64,000 bases of DNA, taken from Escherichia coli (GTDB taxonomy: Bacteria > Pseudomonadota > Gammaproteobacteria > Enterobacterales > Enterobacteriaceae). The notes beneath the pieces were generated by a model. The model searched no databases, was not told where the DNA came from, and was given only the letters and a program-made list of their open reading frames with translations. Location of the stretch: NCBI RefSeq assembly GCF_030013595.1, contig NZ_CP122768.1; one strand, 5' to 3'. How positions within the stretch are numbered: position 1 is the first letter of the stretch; every line of letters begins with the position of its first letter. This document shows, in pieces, positions 56,412-64,000 of the stretch. Both the position numbers and the translations under genes were made by a program.

Positions 56412-56595
56412 AATCATCATTCAGGTATCAGGAAGAGTTAAGGGTACAAGGGGTACTCGATGGCGGTCTATATTTCACGACTAACGCCATTTCAAGGAAG
56501 AAGTGTGGTGGGTGGTTTCGAATGAGGGCTGGTGTTTTGGTACGTGGCACGCCACTGCAATGTATTTATCCATCAGTACTCATTCAAAAGTACCT

Positions 56596-56624
56596 GGAAA
56601 AAATGCCCGCTATGCCAAGCGGGC
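56596..56624 (-). terminator. Terminator-like hairpin on minus strand (GCCCGC-ttggcata-GCGGGC + ATTTTTT)
   Basis: Read directly; no annotated minus-strand gene upstream of it. Confidence 0.4.
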
Positions 56625-57167
56625 AAATTGCTTACATGTGGAATTAAGTAATTAACGATAAAGCCAGAGTATTATCATTTATCATGCCTCTTCATTTAAT
56701 CAGGTTAATTACTCAAATCACTGAACTATTCTCTGTTCGCTCACTGATGATAAGTGAAGTGTCACAACCACGATTTGTATGTGGACCAATGCTGTAGAGT
56801 AAGGATGAAATGTCTCTGCCACGCCTTAAACATCTACTACTGACTAGAACCGCCGTCGAATGCAGAAGAGCCTTGTGAGCATTACAGGAGTCTGGCTTTG
56901 GTCATTAATCAACGCTATTTAGATATAAATTTCTAACACTCAAAAAACGATTCTCACGAATAAATTATAACGGGTGGTTTTTATCATACAGTGAAATAAC
57001 CTTTTGCTTATTAAATTTAACATTCTTGTGCTAAATTAATTAAAAGTACCATGTATAGCATATGAAGCTGTTAATGCCAGCAATTGTCTCAAATGAGCGA
57101 TTTTTTATAGTGACAAACAATAATAACATTAAAAATAGCCATGTAGACATTAACTGAGGAAAAGACA

Positions 57168-59219: not shown

Positions 59220-59557
59220 TTTTTATGTGAGCAGAAGATATTCATCAGAAACGATTATGTAAATCATTTTATTTTGCCAACGGCCTCATTGTCGAAAGAA
59301 AAGAATACGCCCGTGTTTCCTGAATAGATTGACTTTTTTATCCAACCACACTTCAGCGCACTGCGTTTAAAAAATGCCTCATTCTTATGCGGAATATCAT
59401 CATTTCATCATGATGTCTTTGATGAGCGGTGAACACAATACACTTGCGCTGTCTCTTCAGGATGAATCCCCTGGTCTGGTGCCTGTGGGCTGATGTTGCA
59501 GCAGAGCTAAGGTTGCTTAAACGCTACTCAGTATTCACTTTTCAGAGGATGAAATTT

Positions 59558-62500
59558 ATGAACAGGACCAGTCCCTATTATTTTCGCCGCTCAGTACTTT
59601 CCTTATTGATATCTGCCTTAATATATGCCCAGCCCGGGATGGCGGCCTTCACTACTAATGTTATTGGTGTGGTAAACGATGAGACTGTAGATGGCAACCA
59701 ACGAGTAGATGAACGAGGTACAACAAATAACACTCATATTATCAACCATGGCCGGCAGGAGGTCTATGGTGGGATATCTAATAGTAGTATTATTGAAACT
59801 GGTGGCGAGCAACTAGTATCAATCCATGCCGATATTAACGGGCAAGCTAATAATACAACCATTAATGGAGGCAGACAGTCAATTGAGTACGGAGGAATTT
59901 CTACTGGCACGATAATCGAAAGTGGCAATCAATATGTTTATAAAGGTGGTACCAGCAATGACACGACAATTAAGGGCGGTACTTCACGCATAGAGGGGGG
60001 ACTGCAAATGGAACAATCATTGATGGTGGAGGCCAGTCAGTATCAACTCAGGGGCATGTTGACGGTACGACGATAAATAAGTCTGGTTATCAGGACATCA
60101 CGCAAGGAAGTCTGGCGACGAACACAACCATAAATGGTGGGCGACAGTATGTTGAACAGAGCACAGTAGAAACAACCGCCATTAAAAATGGCGGTGAGCA
60201 AAGAGTATATGAGAGCCGTGCGCTGGACACGACGATTGAAGGCGGAACTCAGTCTCTGAATAGTAAGTCAACGGCAAAAAATACGCAGATCTATTCTGGT
60301 GGTACGCAAATTGTTGATAACACGAGCTCCTCGGATGTTATTGAAGTTTATTCCGGCGGCGTGCTTGATGTTAGAGGTGGTACGGCAACTAATATTACTC
60401 AGCACGATGGAGCCGCTTTAAAAGTAACGACTTACGATTTGACGGTGAGCGGTACGAATAGTGAAGGGGCATTCTCCATCCACAATAACGTGGCAGAGAA
60501 TGTGTTGCTGGAAAACGGTGGTCATTTAGACATAAACGCATATGGTTCGGCAAATAAGACGATTATTAAAGATAAAGGAACAATGTCAGTTTTAACGAAT
60601 GCTAAAGCTGATGCGACCCGAATAGATAATGGCGGCGTTATGGATGTTGCCGGAAACGCGACAAATACCATAATTAATGGTGGCACACAGAATATTAATA
60701 ATCATGGTATTGCCACGGGCACCAATATCAACAGTGGAACGCAAAATATCAAGAGCGGCGGGAAAGCTGACACGACAAATATATCCTCTGGGAGCCGGCA
60801 GGTTGTTGAGAAAGATGGTACGGCAACTGGCAGCAATATTAGCGCCGGAGGCTCGCTGATTGTCTATACCGGCGGTATTGCACATGGGGTTAACCAGGAG
60901 ACGGGCAGTGCTTTAGTTGCCAACACGGGCGCAGGGACTGATATCGAAGGATACAACAAGCTCTCTCACTTCACTATTACCGGAGGAGAGGCTAATTATG
61001 TTGTGCTGGAAAATACCGGCGAACTGACGGTAATGGCTAAAACCTCGGCGAAAAATACTACCATTGATGCTGGCGGTAAGCTGATTGTCCAGAAGGAGGC
61101 TAAAACAGATAGCACCAGACTTAATAATGGTGGCGTTCTGGAGGTTCAGGACGGTGGTGAGGCTAAGCATGTTGAGCAACAATCCGGCGGCGCATTAATT
61201 GCTTCCACGACCTCCGGAACACTTATCGAAGGAACCAACAGTTATGGTGATGCTTTCTACATCAGGAATTCAGAAGCTAAAAATGTAGTGCTGGAAAACG
61301 CTGGCTCATTAACAGTCGTCACTGGTTCCCGGGCAATTGACACGATTATTAATGCCAACGGCAAAATGGATGTTTATGGAAAAGATGTTGGTACTGTACT
61401 TAATAGTGCTGGTACCCAAACAATATATGCCAGTGCCACTTCTGAAAAAGCAAATATCAAAGGTGGCAAGCAAATGGTATATGGTTTAGCCACTGAGGCA
61501 AATATCGAAAGTGGTGAACAAATTGTTGATGGTGGGTCAACAGACAAAACGCACATCAATGGCGGTACGCAAACCGTTCAGAATTATGGTAAGGCGATCA
61601 ATACCGATATCGTCTCTGGCCTACAACAAATTATGGTAAACGGGACAGCGGAAGGTTCCATTATTAATGGCGGTTCACAGGTAGTTAATGAGGGCGGTCT
61701 GGCTGAAAACTCGGTGCTTAATGACGGCGGCACTCTCGATGTGCGGGAGAAAGGCAGCGCAACGGGGATACAGCAAAGTAGCCAGGGCGCGTTGGTGGCA
61801 ACCACCAGAGCGACGCGGGTCACAGGGACACGCGCTGATGGCGTCGCGTTCAGCATTGAGCAGGATGCGGCGAACAATATCCTGCTGGCAAATGGCGGCG
61901 TGTTAACCGTGGAGTCAGACACCACTTCCGCCAAAACACAGGTCAATGCGGGCGGGCGGGAGATCGTCAAAACAAAAGCCACTGCGACAGGCACGACGCT
62001 CACCGGCGGCGAACAAATCGTCGAGGGGGTGGCGAATGAGACAACGATTAACGACGGCGGAATACAAACAGTTTCGGCTAACGGTGAGGCAGTAAAAACA
62101 ACGATTAATGAAGGCGGTACGCTGACAGTCAACGATAATGGCAAAGCGACAGATATCATCCAGAACAGCGGTGCCGCTCTCCAGACGAGCACGGCTAACG
62201 GTATTGAAATCAGCGGTACTCACCAGTACGGCACCTTTTCCATTGCCGGAAATTTAGCGACCAATGCGTTGCTGGAAAATGGCGGTAATTTATTGGTATT
62301 AGCAGGTACCGAAGCCCGTGACTCCACGGTTGGCAAGGGTGGTGCAATACAAAACCTGGGTCAGGACTTCGCCACAAAGGTTAATTCTGGTGGACAATAT
62401 ACCCTCGGTCGGTCAAAAGATGAGTTTCAGGCTTTGGCCCGGGCAGAAGATCTACAGATCGCTGGCGGGACGGCAATCGTCTACGCAGGTACGCTGGCGG

Positions 62501-64000
62501 ATGCATCGGTCAGTGGCGCGACAGGAAGCCTGTCGTTAATGACGCCACGGGATAATGTTACGCCAGTTAAACTTGAAGGGGTGGTCCGGATTACCGATAG
62601 CGCGACATTAACTATCGGAAATGGCGTCGATACGACGCTTGCCGACCTGACGGCTGCCAGTCGGGGCAGTGTCTGGCTTAACAGCAATAATTCCTGTGCA
62701 GGCACCAGCAACTGCGAATATAGAGTAAACAGTTTACTCCTCAACGACGGTGATGTTTATTTATCAGCACAAACAGCAGCGCCTGCCACAACTAACGGTA
62801 TCTACAATACGCTGACCACCAGTGAACTTTCCGGCAGCGGTAATTTCTACCTGCATACCAACGTTGCAGGCTCCCGGGGCGATCAACTGGTCGTCAACAA
62901 CAACGCCACTGGCAATTTTAAAATCTTTGTTCAGGATACCGGCGTCAGCCCTCAGTCTGACGACGCGATGACGCTGGTGAAAACAGGGGGAGGGGATGCT
63001 TCGTTTACGCTGGGTAATACCAGCGGTTTCGTTGATCTTGGGACCTATGAGTATGTCCTGAAAAGCGACGGCAACAGCAACTGGAACCTGACCAATGATG
63101 TCAAACCCAACCCGGACCCCAACCCAAATCCGAAACCGGATCCAAAACCAGACCCAAAACCGGATCCGAAACCAGACCCGACTCCCGATCCAACGCCGAC
63201 ACCCGTCCCGGAGAAACGCATCACGCCTTCTACGGCAGCCGTACTCAATATGGCAGCAACATTACCGTTGGTCTTTGATGCTGAGCTAAACAGTATTCGC
63301 GAGCGGTTGAACATAATGAAAGCGAGTCCACACAACAATAATGTCTGGGGGACGACGTATAACACCCGTAATAATGTCACCACCGATGCGGGTGCCGGGT
63401 TTGAGCAGACGCTGACCGGAATGACGGTGGGGATCGATAGCCGTAATGATATTCCTGAGGGGATTGCGACGCTGGGCGCTTTTATGGGTTATTCCCATTC
63501 ACATATTGGTTTTGATCGTGGAGGACATGGCAGTGTGGGCAGTTATTCTCTGGGGGGCTATGCCAGCTGGGAACATGAAAGTGGTTTCTATCTGGACGGT
63601 ATCGTGAAGCTGAACCGCTTTGAAAGTAACGTAGCCGGTAAAATGAGCAGCGGTGGAGCCGCCAACGGCAGTTATCGCAGCAACGGGCTGGGCGGTCACA
63701 TTGAAACCGGGATGCGATTTACCGATGGTAACTGGAACCTGACGCCGTATGCATCGTTAACGGGGTTCACCGCTGATAACCCCGAATATCATTTATCCAA
63801 TGGCATGGAATCGAAATCAGTCGATACCCGCAGTATATATCGTGAACTGGGCGCAACGCTGAGTTACAACATGCGTCTGGGGAACGGTATGGAAATTGAG
63901 CCGTGGCTGAAGGCGGCTGTGCGCAAAGAATTTGTCGATGATAACCGGGTGAAGGTGAATAATGACGGTAATTTCGTCAATGATTTGTCGGGCAGACGTG
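59558..64000 (+). pseudogene. ypjA: AIDA-I-type autotransporter adhesin (YpjA/EhaD-like); frame broken at G6 tract 59995-60000; 3' end beyond window
   Basis: Signal peptide MNRTSPYYFRRSVLSLLISALIYAQPGMAA; frame A stops at 60076; the adjacent frame from 59974 is open to the window end and encodes repeated GG-x-Q-x-V passenger repeats, a PNPDPNPNPKPDPKPDP linker and the start of the beta-barrel domain. Confidence 0.85.

Follow-up and report, generated by a model that had tools for sequence, protein, structure and literature searches.

The window, meaning the whole 64,000-nucleotide stretch of Escherichia coli DNA that was analysed, carries at its right-hand end the features listed in Table 1. 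Gene order and orientation are the same as in K-12 b2647-b2652 and b4462 (ypjA - pinH - ypjB/ypjC - ileY - ygaQ), a region that adjoins the cryptic prophage CP4-57 and shows 93.7% nucleotide identity to the window over 56000-64000. The region thus corresponds to a stretch of E. coli that has been annotated before, ypjC/ypjB–pinH–ypjA between the tRNA gene ileY and the tmRNA gene ssrA, and the finding is largely an ordinary one. The two copies differ in which genes are broken. In the window ypjCB and ygaQ are intact and ypjA is frameshifted, whereas K-12 has ypjCB split into ypjC and ypjB, ygaQ as a pseudogene (as in many other strains) and an intact ypjA.

Table 1. Features of the glaH-ssrA interval in the window
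Feature	Position	Strand	Basis or remark
Accessory block ygaQ-ileY-ypjCB-relics-ypjA	53387..64000	.	right end at window-equivalent 64140, 140 bp past window
ygaQ, alpha-amylase-family ORF, 750 aa	53524..55776	-	ORF list
ileY, tRNA-Ile2, anticodon CAU	56336..56411	+	Rfam tRNA 73.7 bits; RefSeq tRNA-Ile
ileY trailing flank, part of ygaQ-ileY module	56412..56733	.	common to E. albertii
Candidate unannotated sRNA, 68 nt, convergent with ileY	56598..56665	-	alignment, terminator scan, fold
ypjCB (K-12 ypjC + ypjB), orphan, 484 aa	57168..58622	+	NF050179; DUF5507/DUF5508
Fels-2-like (P2-family, ssrA-integrating) prophage ogr-end/att junction relic	58741..58824	+	match to Salmonella phage RE-2010
Internal IS3-family fragment, transposase orfB region	58902..58988	+	87 bp, no IS ends
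pinH, dead internal P2-type invertase fragment (Pin/Cin/Gin family)	58983..59150	+	RefSeq, alignments
ypjA module: leader, 39-aa upstream ORF, ypjA/ehaD	59173..64000	+	paralogy to ycgV locus
39-aa upstream ORF of ypjA module	59374-59493	+	35/39 identical to ycgV-locus module
G6 homopolymer, -1 frameshift in ypjA	59995..60000	+	G7 in intact relatives

Genes and relics of the interval

The ygaQ gene has a GC content of 0.379 and 28 AUA codons per 1000, and its homologues are confined to E. coli and E. albertii (60% amino acid identity), plus one metagenome protein at 34%. Between these two species its dS comes to 2.4, whereas the flanking core genes give 0.15-0.47; because the ygaQ value is saturated, the two ygaQ copies are not plain vertical orthologues. 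The tRNA-Ile2 with anticodon CAU reads AUA once it is lysidine-modified. The ileY of the window differs from that of K-12 at 4 of 76 positions, and its anticodon stem shows a compensatory G28-C42 to A28-U42 change. The second AUA-decoding tRNA, ileY may form a travelling module together with ygaQ, which is rich in AUA, and it would be dispensable because ileX remains. Using blastn, window positions 56262-56733 align to two E. albertii loci (L010 and L092), the homology running 322 bp past the tRNA 3' end; in strain KKa014 the flank homology stops at 56757, at an IS3 element.

The candidate small RNA lies in the trailing flank as well. A -10-like ATGATAAT is followed by the invariant body and this by a GC hairpin with U6; the fold has a z of -2.4. 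In the alignment this 68-nt element shows no change between E. coli and E. albertii. It is present in one copy in each of 3088 genomes, in none of which an annotated feature covers it, and no Rfam match was obtained.

A preliminary description of this DNA had placed a protein of unknown function, 484 aa long, after ileY. This is YpjCB, called by NF050179 at 961 bits (cut-off 650) and composed of the Pfam domains DUF5507 and DUF5508. No relatives beyond E. coli/Shigella were found among 1.84 billion representative proteins. The GC content of ypjCB is 0.344, and the window allele has only about 79% amino acid identity to the common allele.

The autotransporter adhesin gene of the same description proved to be ypjA/ehaD, itself frameshifted in the window. 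Its start is at 59558 and the window ends before its stop, which would fall at window-equivalent 64131; the gene is of the AIDA-I/Ag43-type autotransporter class (barrel TIGR01414, E = 6.9e-86; Ag43/AIDA-I repeats were also matched). YpjA/EhaD is a known biofilm-associated autotransporter (PMC9289746). The module that contains it starts about 20 bp past the invertase fragment, and from 59173 on it is 87-95% identical in nucleotide sequence to L099. With the ycgV-locus module it has in common a leader of roughly 390 bp, the 39-aa ORF and the signal, passenger and barrel regions, although the two lie at different genomic sites and additional repeat blocks at 59917-60557 and 61152-61716 lengthen the ypjA passenger. 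Judged by sequence, the ypjA module and the autotransporter module of the ycgV locus (ymgJ side) are paralogues. The G6 run splits the window ORF into 59558-60076 and 59974 onward. A G7 run accompanies an intact ypjA ORF in L001 and L088, and the 99.9%-identical genome NZ_CM149870 has G7; G6 recurs in O145 RM12275, where ypjA is annotated as frameshifted.

Between ypjCB and ypjA, a frameshifted Pin-family invertase had been described. A remnant is indeed present, but more than a frameshift has befallen it. What is left corresponds to residues 42-94 from the interior of a P2-type phage invertase of roughly 190 aa; RefSeq labels it "recombinase family protein, missing N- and C-terminus", and pinH of K-12 consists of the same internal fragment. 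Window positions 58992-59131 show 80-84% nucleotide identity to P2-like phage invertase genes, and the remnant has 70% amino acid identity to Cin of P1/P7. Compared with the Pin/Cin/Gin/Hin serine DNA invertases of P1, P2-like phages, Mu and e14, only these conserved-core residues are retained, whereas the N-terminal catalytic serine region and the C-terminal DNA-binding helix-turn-helix are gone. No invertible segment or crossover-site inverted repeats were found near pinH. The invertase remnant is abutted by the IS3 fragment, which is 88.6% identical to both IS3 copies of L002 and whose translation gives a weak match to NF033516 transpos_IS3.

The junction relic consists, in order, of a phage-supplied terminator hairpin, TGGTGG (58803-58808, the reverse complement of CCACCA) and a degenerate stretch that resembles a tRNA/tmRNA 3' end. 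The 68 nt at 58741-58808 are 91% identical to positions 34011-34078 of Salmonella phage RE-2010, which overlap the annotated terminal repeat of the phage, a repeat that holds the reverse complement of the ssrA 3' end. Scores against the ileY and ssrA 3' ends are equal for the degenerate CCA-end stretch (58803-58824), and what links this stretch to an ssrA-type phage is solely the 62 nt of phage DNA beside it. In the relic the phage DNA is on the left, the side of ypjCB, and the tRNA-like end on the right; no simple single-integration history yields this orientation. The zone previously described as a Pin remnant is a patchwork of an ssrA-phage junction relic, an IS3 piece, the middle of an invertase and the ypjA module.

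Extent and distribution of the block

Homology to genomes with an "empty" site (phylogroup B2 ST131, Escherichia sp. E1V33 and E. whittamii) ends at 53386 and restarts 9 nt after the ypjA stop codon, at L001 position 29479 (window-equivalent 64141). This delimits a variable block of 10.75 kb, from 53387 to about 64140, with its right end 152 bp from the ssrA 3' end. The far boundary had been expected either beyond 64000 or to have eroded, and it is the first of these that holds, about 140 bp past the window end. As ileY and the upstream ygaQ both lie within these limits, ileY was rejected as an island edge. The AT-richness does not begin downstream of ileY, as had been thought, but about 3 kb upstream of it: in windowed profiles GC is about 0.54-0.62 up to about 53000-53250, where it falls to 0.30-0.44 over a zone that covers ygaQ, and it is back to 0.51-0.56 from about 61500, within ypjA. 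AUA codons number 9-35 per 1000 in the block genes versus 3.2 in 18 neighbouring core genes.

The empty genomes have an unrelated 333 bp in place of the block, in ST131 with a glaH-ssrA spacing of 683 bp and in Escherichia sp. E1V33 and E. whittamii with the same layout. The difference is thus a replacement and not a clean insertion, so that the direction of change is inferred from which lineages hold which state, the outgroups being few and sampled without E. fergusonii and E. marmotae. The flanks of the two haplotypes are merely 86-89% identical, and no terminal repeats were found at the block ends, nor any repeat of the ssrA 3' end.

The survey took in 5426 complete E. coli genomes. Of these, 3416 contain 80% or more of glaH and ygaQ, 3392 match the ileY spacer, 2686 contain 80% or more of 56000-64000, and 1100 have an uninterrupted empty glaH-ssrA spacer. 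Genomes without the supposed islet usually also lack ileY and ygaQ, making one presence/absence block. The same content is not found throughout Escherichia. Phylogroup B2 E. coli, Escherichia sp. E1V33 and E. whittamii are without ygaQ, ileY, ypjCB and ypjA alike. In E. albertii, ygaQ-ileY is present and both ypjCB and ypjA are missing, in the order glaH - ygaQ - ileY - 322 bp flank - ykgO/ykgM/ykgR - ssrA. Composition, decay and presence/absence support the earlier view that this is accessory, atypical and degraded DNA without a working mobility gene. The segment first described is probably the right-hand two-thirds of a 10.75-kb block that, in E. coli outside B2, takes up the interval between glaH and ssrA.

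ileY and ssrA as integration targets

The preliminary description took the segment for an ileY-targeted island that had lost its integrase. We consider it very improbable that ypjCB-pin'-ypjA is a single island inserted by an integrase at the ileY 3' end, with the integrase and the distal repeat lost later. The segment does lie on the 3' side of a tRNA used by other elements, among them the ter-operon elements reported at ileY (PMC8193136), its composition is atypical and its presence variable, and E. albertii has other genes between ileY and ssrA. However, the block has no integrase, and the reported lack of an ileY 3'-end repeat in the window was borne out and extends up to ssrA in the closest genome, using exact 12-mers and 15-30-mers with 1-7 mismatches. 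The E. albertii homology continues 322 bp beyond the tRNA, so the tRNA end is not a junction, and genomes without the segment mostly lack ileY and ygaQ as well. The segment is also composite, with four or more pieces that have nothing to do with one another, and its recombinase relic is of an invertase, not an integrase; phage DNA invertases invert segments and do not integrate islands. Moreover, NZ_CM136175 has a P2-like prophage integrated in ileY, with the intact tRNA on one side of it and a partial copy of 46 nt on the other. The usual flank and ypjCB come after that copy, and the window DNA is therefore the outside flank of the ileY att site.

The block resembles tRNA/tmRNA-targeted islands and prophages, such as islands with a P4-type integrase, in lying between two targets, in its atypical composition and variable presence and in its phage debris, but differs from them in having no integrase or target 3'-end repeat and in holding the tRNA inside rather than at its edge. 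Genuine target-site elements are seen in L001 (int adjoining ssrA), in NZ_CM136175, with its 46-nt ileY repeat, and in K-12 (CP4-57, with a 14-nt psaA repeat).

The region has a sole att-like fossil, and its match is to one end of a Fels-2-like phage specific for ssrA. It is possible, though we hold it only tentatively, that the DNA from about 58.8 kb to ssrA is what remains of at least one ssrA-targeted element in a tandem array, with 58803-58824 as a displaced partial ssrA copy marking the inner boundary and ygaQ-ileY-ypjCB as older flank. The 68-nt match is to the ssrA-proximal (ogr-end) junction of RE-2010 and includes the terminator and TGGTGG, the P2-type invertase fragment has the same orientation, and ssrA is much used: L001 has a P4-like satellite there, K-12 has CP4-57, and L002, L004 and L094 have other islands. 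Against this, the partial copy is too degenerate to be assigned to ssrA rather than ileY, and ypjA is no phage gene but paralogous to an autotransporter module of the chromosome. The 152 bp that adjoin ssrA (trailer and terminator) are common to the empty genomes and separate ssrA from ypjA, which places ypjA outside the present attB flank.

Age, selection and a proposed history

Between E. coli lineages, dS is 0.11-0.23 for ygaQ, ypjCB and ypjA and 0.14-0.24 for glaH. At silent sites the block genes have thus diverged as much as the core gene beside them, which makes the block an old resident. This agreement, the ygaQ-ileY beside glaH in the early-branching E. albertii and the low identity of the haplotype flanks would fit a block ancestral to Escherichia, deleted in B2, E. 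whittamii and E1V33 and partly replaced in E. albertii. We regard this as unlikely, because the 333 bp of the empty sites are absent from block genomes, so that these sites are not simple deletion derivatives, and because ygaQ divergence from E. albertii far exceeds that of its neighbours. Low GC, AUA-rich codons, orphan genes and phage/IS debris also suggest a foreign origin, and in other genera glaH adjoins neither ssrA nor ileY.

In our opinion the block is likely to be an immobile accessory patchwork at a recombination hot spot, rather than one ileY-integrated island. On either side of the hot spot would lie an integration target, the ileY 3' end and the ssrA 3' end, the two being convergent. 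At least one P2-family prophage may formerly have occupied the interval, to be eroded by IS3 activity and the arrival of the ypjA module, and thereafter the immobile patchwork would have been passed on like any other part of the chromosome, by vertical descent and through homologous recombination in its flanks. Its genes are perhaps largely silenced by H-NS/Hha; in K-12, H-NS and Hha binding has been reported in the ileY-ygaQ and ypjC-ileY spacers (PMC3946193, PMC2408971). The genes ygaQ, ypjCB and ypjA may drift under weak or diversifying selection and be repeatedly knocked out. Omega is 0.64-0.85 for ypjCB and 0.42-0.58 for ypjA codons 1-320, compared with 0.01-0.08 for glaH, and the block genes have been pseudogenised independently and repeatedly across strains.

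Limits and age of the variable block

Comparison with complete E. coli genomes showed that segment 56000-64000 is variable among strains and is carried by about half of them, with at least 80% of it held by 2686 of 5426 genomes. The ileY spacer was matched at all in 3392 of these genomes, glaH together with ygaQ was held (at least 80%) in 3416, and an uninterrupted empty glaH-ssrA spacer was found in 1100. Roughly one third of E. coli, ST131 and further B2 lineages among them, are without the ileY tRNA, and it is generally missing as well where the segment is missing. Presence of this content throughout Escherichia, which would have spoken against the preliminary description, was not what was seen; the DNA is accessory.

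In ST131 (O25:H4, phylogroup B2) the 3' end of ssrA, the tmRNA gene, lies 683 bp after glaH, and ygaQ, ileY, ypjCB and ypjA are all missing. Aligned to the window type, the first 198 bp of this spacer correspond to window 53188-53386 and the last 152 bp to the stretch from 9 nt past the ypjA stop codon up to ssrA, while the middle 333 bp were found only in empty genomes. From this three-part alignment the variable block extends from 53387 to window-equivalent 64140, a length of 10,754 bp, and contains ygaQ, ileY, ypjCB, a zone of relics and ypjA. The exact limits of the block are now defined. The far boundary had been thought to lie beyond 64000 or to have eroded; it lies just past the window end and is not eroded. 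Neither direct nor inverted repeats are present at the two block ends, and ypjA ends about 160 bp from ssrA where the ssrA site is unoccupied.

Features of the block, in window coordinates
Feature	Position	Strand	Description
ygaQ		minus	alpha-amylase-like gene, 750 aa; within the low-GC zone
ileY	56336-56411	+	ARAGORN anticodon CAT; Rfam tRNA; RefSeq tRNA-Ile
candidate sRNA, 68 nt	56598-56665	minus	K-12 NC_000913.3 ~2,785,508-2,785,575 (+)
ypjCB	57168-58622	+	484-aa ORF; NF050179 and Pfam DUF5507/DUF5508
Fels-2-like phage end	58741-58808		91% identical to right end of Salmonella phage RE-2010
IS3 internal piece	58902-58988		88.6% identical to IS3 element
invertase fragment (pinH)	~58983-59150		both termini flagged missing by RefSeq
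39-aa ORF MPHSYAEYHHFIMMSLMSGEHNTLALSLQDESPGLVPVG	59374-59493	+	upstream of ypjA
ypjA/ehaD	59558 to past window end		RefSeq ypjA/EhaD

In a windowed profile, GC was 0.29-0.45 in the low-GC zone versus 0.52-0.62 outside it. The low-GC zone was said to begin at the 3' end of ileY; its onset is in fact upstream of the tRNA, at about 53000-53250 over ygaQ, and genome-level GC is regained at about 61500 within ypjA. AUA codons, which ileY reads, are 3 to 10 times commoner in block genes than in 18 neighbouring core genes. According to published K-12 data, H-NS and Hha are bound in both spacers flanking ileY (PMC3946193; PMC2408971), which fits silenced foreign DNA.

Divergence between E. coli lineages (ypjCB and ypjA ranges omit comparisons of nearly identical alleles)
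Gene	dS	omega
glaH (adjacent core gene)	0.14-0.24	0.01-0.08
ygaQ	0.02-0.15	0.11-0.24
ypjCB	0.15-0.17	0.64-0.85
ypjA codons 1-320	0.11-0.23	0.42-0.58
ypjA remainder	0.05-0.13	0.12-0.20

At silent sites the block genes have diverged as much as glaH, which indicates that the block predates the split of these lineages and has behaved like ordinary chromosomal DNA ever since. Nucleotide diversity is highest over ypjCB and the N-terminal part of ypjA. Independent knock-outs of each of ygaQ, ypjCB and ypjA, caused by stops, by frameshifts or by truncation through IS3, are seen in several genomes. ypjCB and the ypjA N-terminus are evolving fast and have been inactivated repeatedly.

The scan for relatives was anchored on GlaH and took a single genome from each bacterial species. 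In Escherichia sp. E1V33 and in E. whittamii the interval is empty, and glaH directly adjoins smpB-ssrA. E. albertii has the order glaH, a ygaQ homologue (60% amino acid identity), ileY (7 differences), 322 bp of common flank, ykgO-ykgM-ykgR and ssrA, and neither ypjCB nor ypjA is found in this interval. The neighbour of glaH in other lineages is an ankyrin-repeat gene or a fimbrial-type gene, and in other genera glaH is near neither ssrA nor a tRNA. Between E. coli and E. albertii the silent sites of ygaQ are saturated (dS 2.4) against 0.15-0.47 for the flanking core genes, so the two ygaQ-ileY modules are not plain vertical orthologues. An ancestral block that was lost repeatedly is improbable, because it conflicts with this saturation, with the 333-bp replacement in empty genomes and with the foreign composition. 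We consider it probable that the block is an old patchwork that is immobile and sits at a hot spot between two convergent integration targets. In this patchwork ileY would be cargo, and debris of P2-family prophage and of IS elements would have been caught with an orphan gene on one side and a duplicated autotransporter module on the other.

Some further observations were made in these relatives. In E. albertii CP117650, ykgR-ykgM-ykgO (L31/L36 ribosomal-protein paralogues; L092 7828-8793) lie between ssrA and ileY; the K-12 copies are sited at a distant locus. Compared with the same strain, glaH, lhgO and gabD (window 49451-53187) have dS of 0.15-0.26, which is below the 0.47 of smpB and no higher than that of glaH between E. 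coli strains (0.14-0.24); on these sequence comparisons, inter-species recombination of the gab/glaH region beside the hot spot is suggested. E. albertii NBRC 107761 alone carries AT-rich ORFs on the ssrA side (L010 1-4766), encoding a 362-aa protein with proline-rich LPPPVPxRPSKSTLAAFMNRN repeats and an OTU-like DGNCLYHAV motif, and two orphans, 395 aa and 222 aa long, whose N-termini are effector-like. An NCBIfam search with these inserted ORFs gave zero matches. The sole distant relative of YgaQ (34% identity) is on a human gut metagenome contig (L093), where its neighbours are an InvH-like gene, an LRR protein, a FidL-like gene and a giant intimin/invasin-type adhesin, a context that is virulence-island-like.

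ileY and the question of its targeting

The tRNA is of the tRNA-Ile2 type by its cloverleaf, CAU anticodon and ileX/ileY-type sequence, and from its near-identity to K-12 ileY we infer that it would be modified to lysidine by TilS and charged with isoleucine. The window and K-12 copies are identical at 72 of 76 positions, and among the 4 differences the anticodon-stem changes are compensatory (A28-U42 and G27-C43 in the window, G28-C42 and G27-U43 in K-12). In K-12, ileX is distinguished from ileY by the compensatory pair C6-G67 versus U6-A67, and the E. albertii ileY copy has an acceptor stem of the ileX type. The diversity of ileY alleles is unusually high for a tRNA within a single species. 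Elsewhere in the window, 22852-23478 holds clustered genes for tRNA-Ser(GCU) and for three copies of tRNA-Arg(ACG); an antisense tRNA-Arg(TCG) that ARAGORN called in overlap with them, at 22968-23039, is probably spurious.

It had been proposed that the DNA downstream of ileY is an island targeted to this tRNA that lost its mobility module. Four tests of this proposal were negative, and we regard it as very improbable. The absence of a repeat of the ileY 3' end from the window was borne out and extends as far as ssrA: between ileY and ssrA there was no exact 12-mer copy and no 15-30-mer copy with 1-7 mismatches. The sole stretch resembling a CCA end (58803-58824) is on the opposite strand to ileY and adjoins ssrA-phage DNA; the alignment scores of this degenerate stretch against ileY and ssrA tie. 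Also contrary to the proposal, the tRNA end is not a junction, since E. coli and E. albertii are alignable for 322 bp beyond it. The edge of the presence/absence variation, at 53386/53387, is upstream of ygaQ, which places ileY inside the block.

Genuine users of the ileY site leave the ypjCB DNA outside. In NZ_CM136175 a P2-like prophage has ileY, intact, on one side and a partial copy of 46 nt (window 56366-56411) on the other, and that copy is followed by the normal flank, ypjCB, pinH and ypjA. Elements with the ter operon have also been described at this site, as 'tRNA-Met, ypjC-ygaQ' (PMC8193136). Together these insertions show that the ypjCB DNA is the outside flank of the att site.

No integrase-like ORF was found in 56412-57167, and the one relic of a recombinase, 2.6 kb from ileY, is the fragment of a serine invertase. 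Pin/Cin/Gin invertases flip segments and do not serve in island integration, so this relic is not of the class that would have inserted an island at ileY. The block is like integrase-mediated tRNA islands in its atypical composition and variable presence. However, such islands have their edge at the tRNA 3' end, with a distal tRNA repeat and an adjacent tyrosine integrase, whereas here the tRNA is inside the block and neither of these is found. An AT-rich stretch beside a tRNA need not have targeted that tRNA; here the tRNA appears to be accessory cargo.

The relic zone and its flanking genes

The window is chromosomal DNA, and K-12 has the same locus in the order ypjA-pinH-ypjB/C-ileY-ygaQ, with ypjC/ypjB-pinH-ypjA between ileY and the cryptic prophage CP4-57. 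ypjC and ypjB are one gene that is split there and a single 484-aa ORF in the window, and K-12 pinH is a pseudogene. The features of the preliminary description therefore exist and were already annotated; as stated, the finding was already known, the genes having long been annotated in K-12. Its 484-aa protein is YpjCB, and its autotransporter adhesin is ypjA/ehaD, with both barrel and passenger matches. What it described as a frameshifted Pin-family remnant is a Pin/Cin/Gin fragment, but an internal one and not a frameshifted gene.

By sequence similarity, the pinH zone can now be split into identified pieces. RE-2010 is a Fels-2-like phage of the P2 family, whose annotated att repeat is made up of its ogr end, a terminator hairpin and the ssrA 3' end in reverse complement. 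Phage DNA, hairpin and TGGTGG (58803-58808) are preserved in the window relic, which then degenerates. After the IS3 piece, 58992-59131 has 80-84% nucleotide identity to invertase genes of P2-like phages. The conserved resolvase core of the fragment is 70% identical in amino acids to Cin and other phage invertases (E = 5e-9). It covers phage invertase residues 42-94 only, so the N-terminal catalytic serine motif is absent, as is the C-terminal helix-turn-helix. A P2-family (Fels-2-like) prophage remnant is represented by the att junction and by the invertase fragment, which is 82% identical to a P2-like phage gene, other phage genes being absent. The ypjA module begins about 20 bp past the end of the fragment; plausibly IS3 removed the invertase 5' part, and the 3' part was removed by arrival of the ypjA module or recombination with its paralogue, this order being inferred. 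As a hot spot, the glaH-ssrA interval has several layers, and its debris records old P2-family prophages.

One possibility is that all DNA to the right of 58.8 kb is what is left of an array directed to ssrA. We find this doubtful, because the 152-bp ssrA trailer and terminator are common to empty genomes, which leaves ypjA outside the present att flank. Searches of plasmid and phage collections with 56412-59557 gave only chromosome-derived records mislabelled as plasmid and short phage relics. Two other ideas about the zone were rejected. A Hin-like promoter switch for ypjA was not upheld, as the inverted repeats flanking the invertase relic were weak and at chance level only, and unusual conservation was not upheld, since the zone is 98-99% identical to K-12 yet its diversity across seven genomes is ordinary.

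YpjCB matched NF050179 over residues 1-484 with 961.5 bits (curated cut-off 650), with DUF5507 at residues 1-160 and DUF5508 at residues 234-484. Its E. coli alleles, only 76-89% identical, appear to be mosaics in which blocks recur in varied combinations. Among 1.84 billion representative proteins we found only E. coli/Shigella alleles and fragments; a low-complexity repeat protein was judged spurious, and ORFs near ileY in E. albertii, within the ssrA-side insertion of one strain, had no similarity. The AlphaFold2 model had a mean pLDDT of 35.5 (14-allele alignment). The N-terminal 28 residues are rich in Ser/Thr/Asn. More speculatively, YpjCB could be a type III secretion substrate, given this N-terminus, its hypervariability and its absence from B2, which is likewise not known to carry the ETT2 secretion system. 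In mixed biofilms, deleting ypjC from K-12 made a modest difference (PMC3646849).

YpjA matched TIGR01414 (E = 6.9e-86), Ag43 (E = 1.5e-94), AIDA-I (E = 5e-74) and TIGR04415 repeats; its C-terminal beta-barrel and repeat-rich beta-helical passenger are those of a type Va (AIDA-I/Ag43-like) autotransporter, and YpjA/EhaD has been described as biofilm-associated (PMC9289746). From 59173 onward the DNA is 87-95% identical to the autotransporter module at the ycgV locus, beside ymgJ. This paralogy extends over the leader and the 39-aa ORF, which is identical at 35 of 39 residues to the ORF upstream of the ycgV-locus autotransporter and may act in both modules as a leader peptide or as a regulatory upstream ORF. 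The window end removes the last 131 nt of ypjA. Besides the features already listed, ypjA is frameshifted in the window: the G-run at 59995-60000 is G6, and G7 in the closest genome (NZ_CM149870, 99.9% identical). G6 also occurs in O145 RM12275, again frameshifted, and G7 in another genome with intact ypjA (L088). The run may be a recurrent slippage hot spot, a site of on/off switching or a homopolymer sequencing error.

A candidate small RNA convergent with ileY

Within the 322-bp flank common to E. albertii, a stretch of 68-70 nt is invariant in 7 E. coli and 2 E. albertii sequences save for one loop and one stem change, while the flank around it is only about 74% identical. Upstream of it are an invariant, -10-like ATGATAAT and then 5-6 variable nt, and its 3' end has a GC hairpin followed by U6. 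A 10-nt perfect inverted repeat surrounds the putative promoter (AGTAATTAAC at 56647-56656 and GTTAATTACT at 56704-56713). The stretch looks like an sRNA gene convergent with ileY. It is single-copy and unannotated in 3088 genomes, K-12 annotation shows nothing between ypjC and ileY, and an Rfam search was without a match. Duplexes of the candidate with translation-start regions of nearby genes were energetically no more favourable than those with random windows.

The invariance of this candidate, set against the silent-site saturation of adjoining ygaQ, suggests a regulatory RNA under strong selection and tied to a rare-codon tRNA. Tentatively, ygaQ-ileY and the 322-bp trailer might form a self-contained acquired cassette that brought in an AUA-decoding tRNA and the 68-nt sRNA. 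The candidate is the most useful by-product of the analysis.
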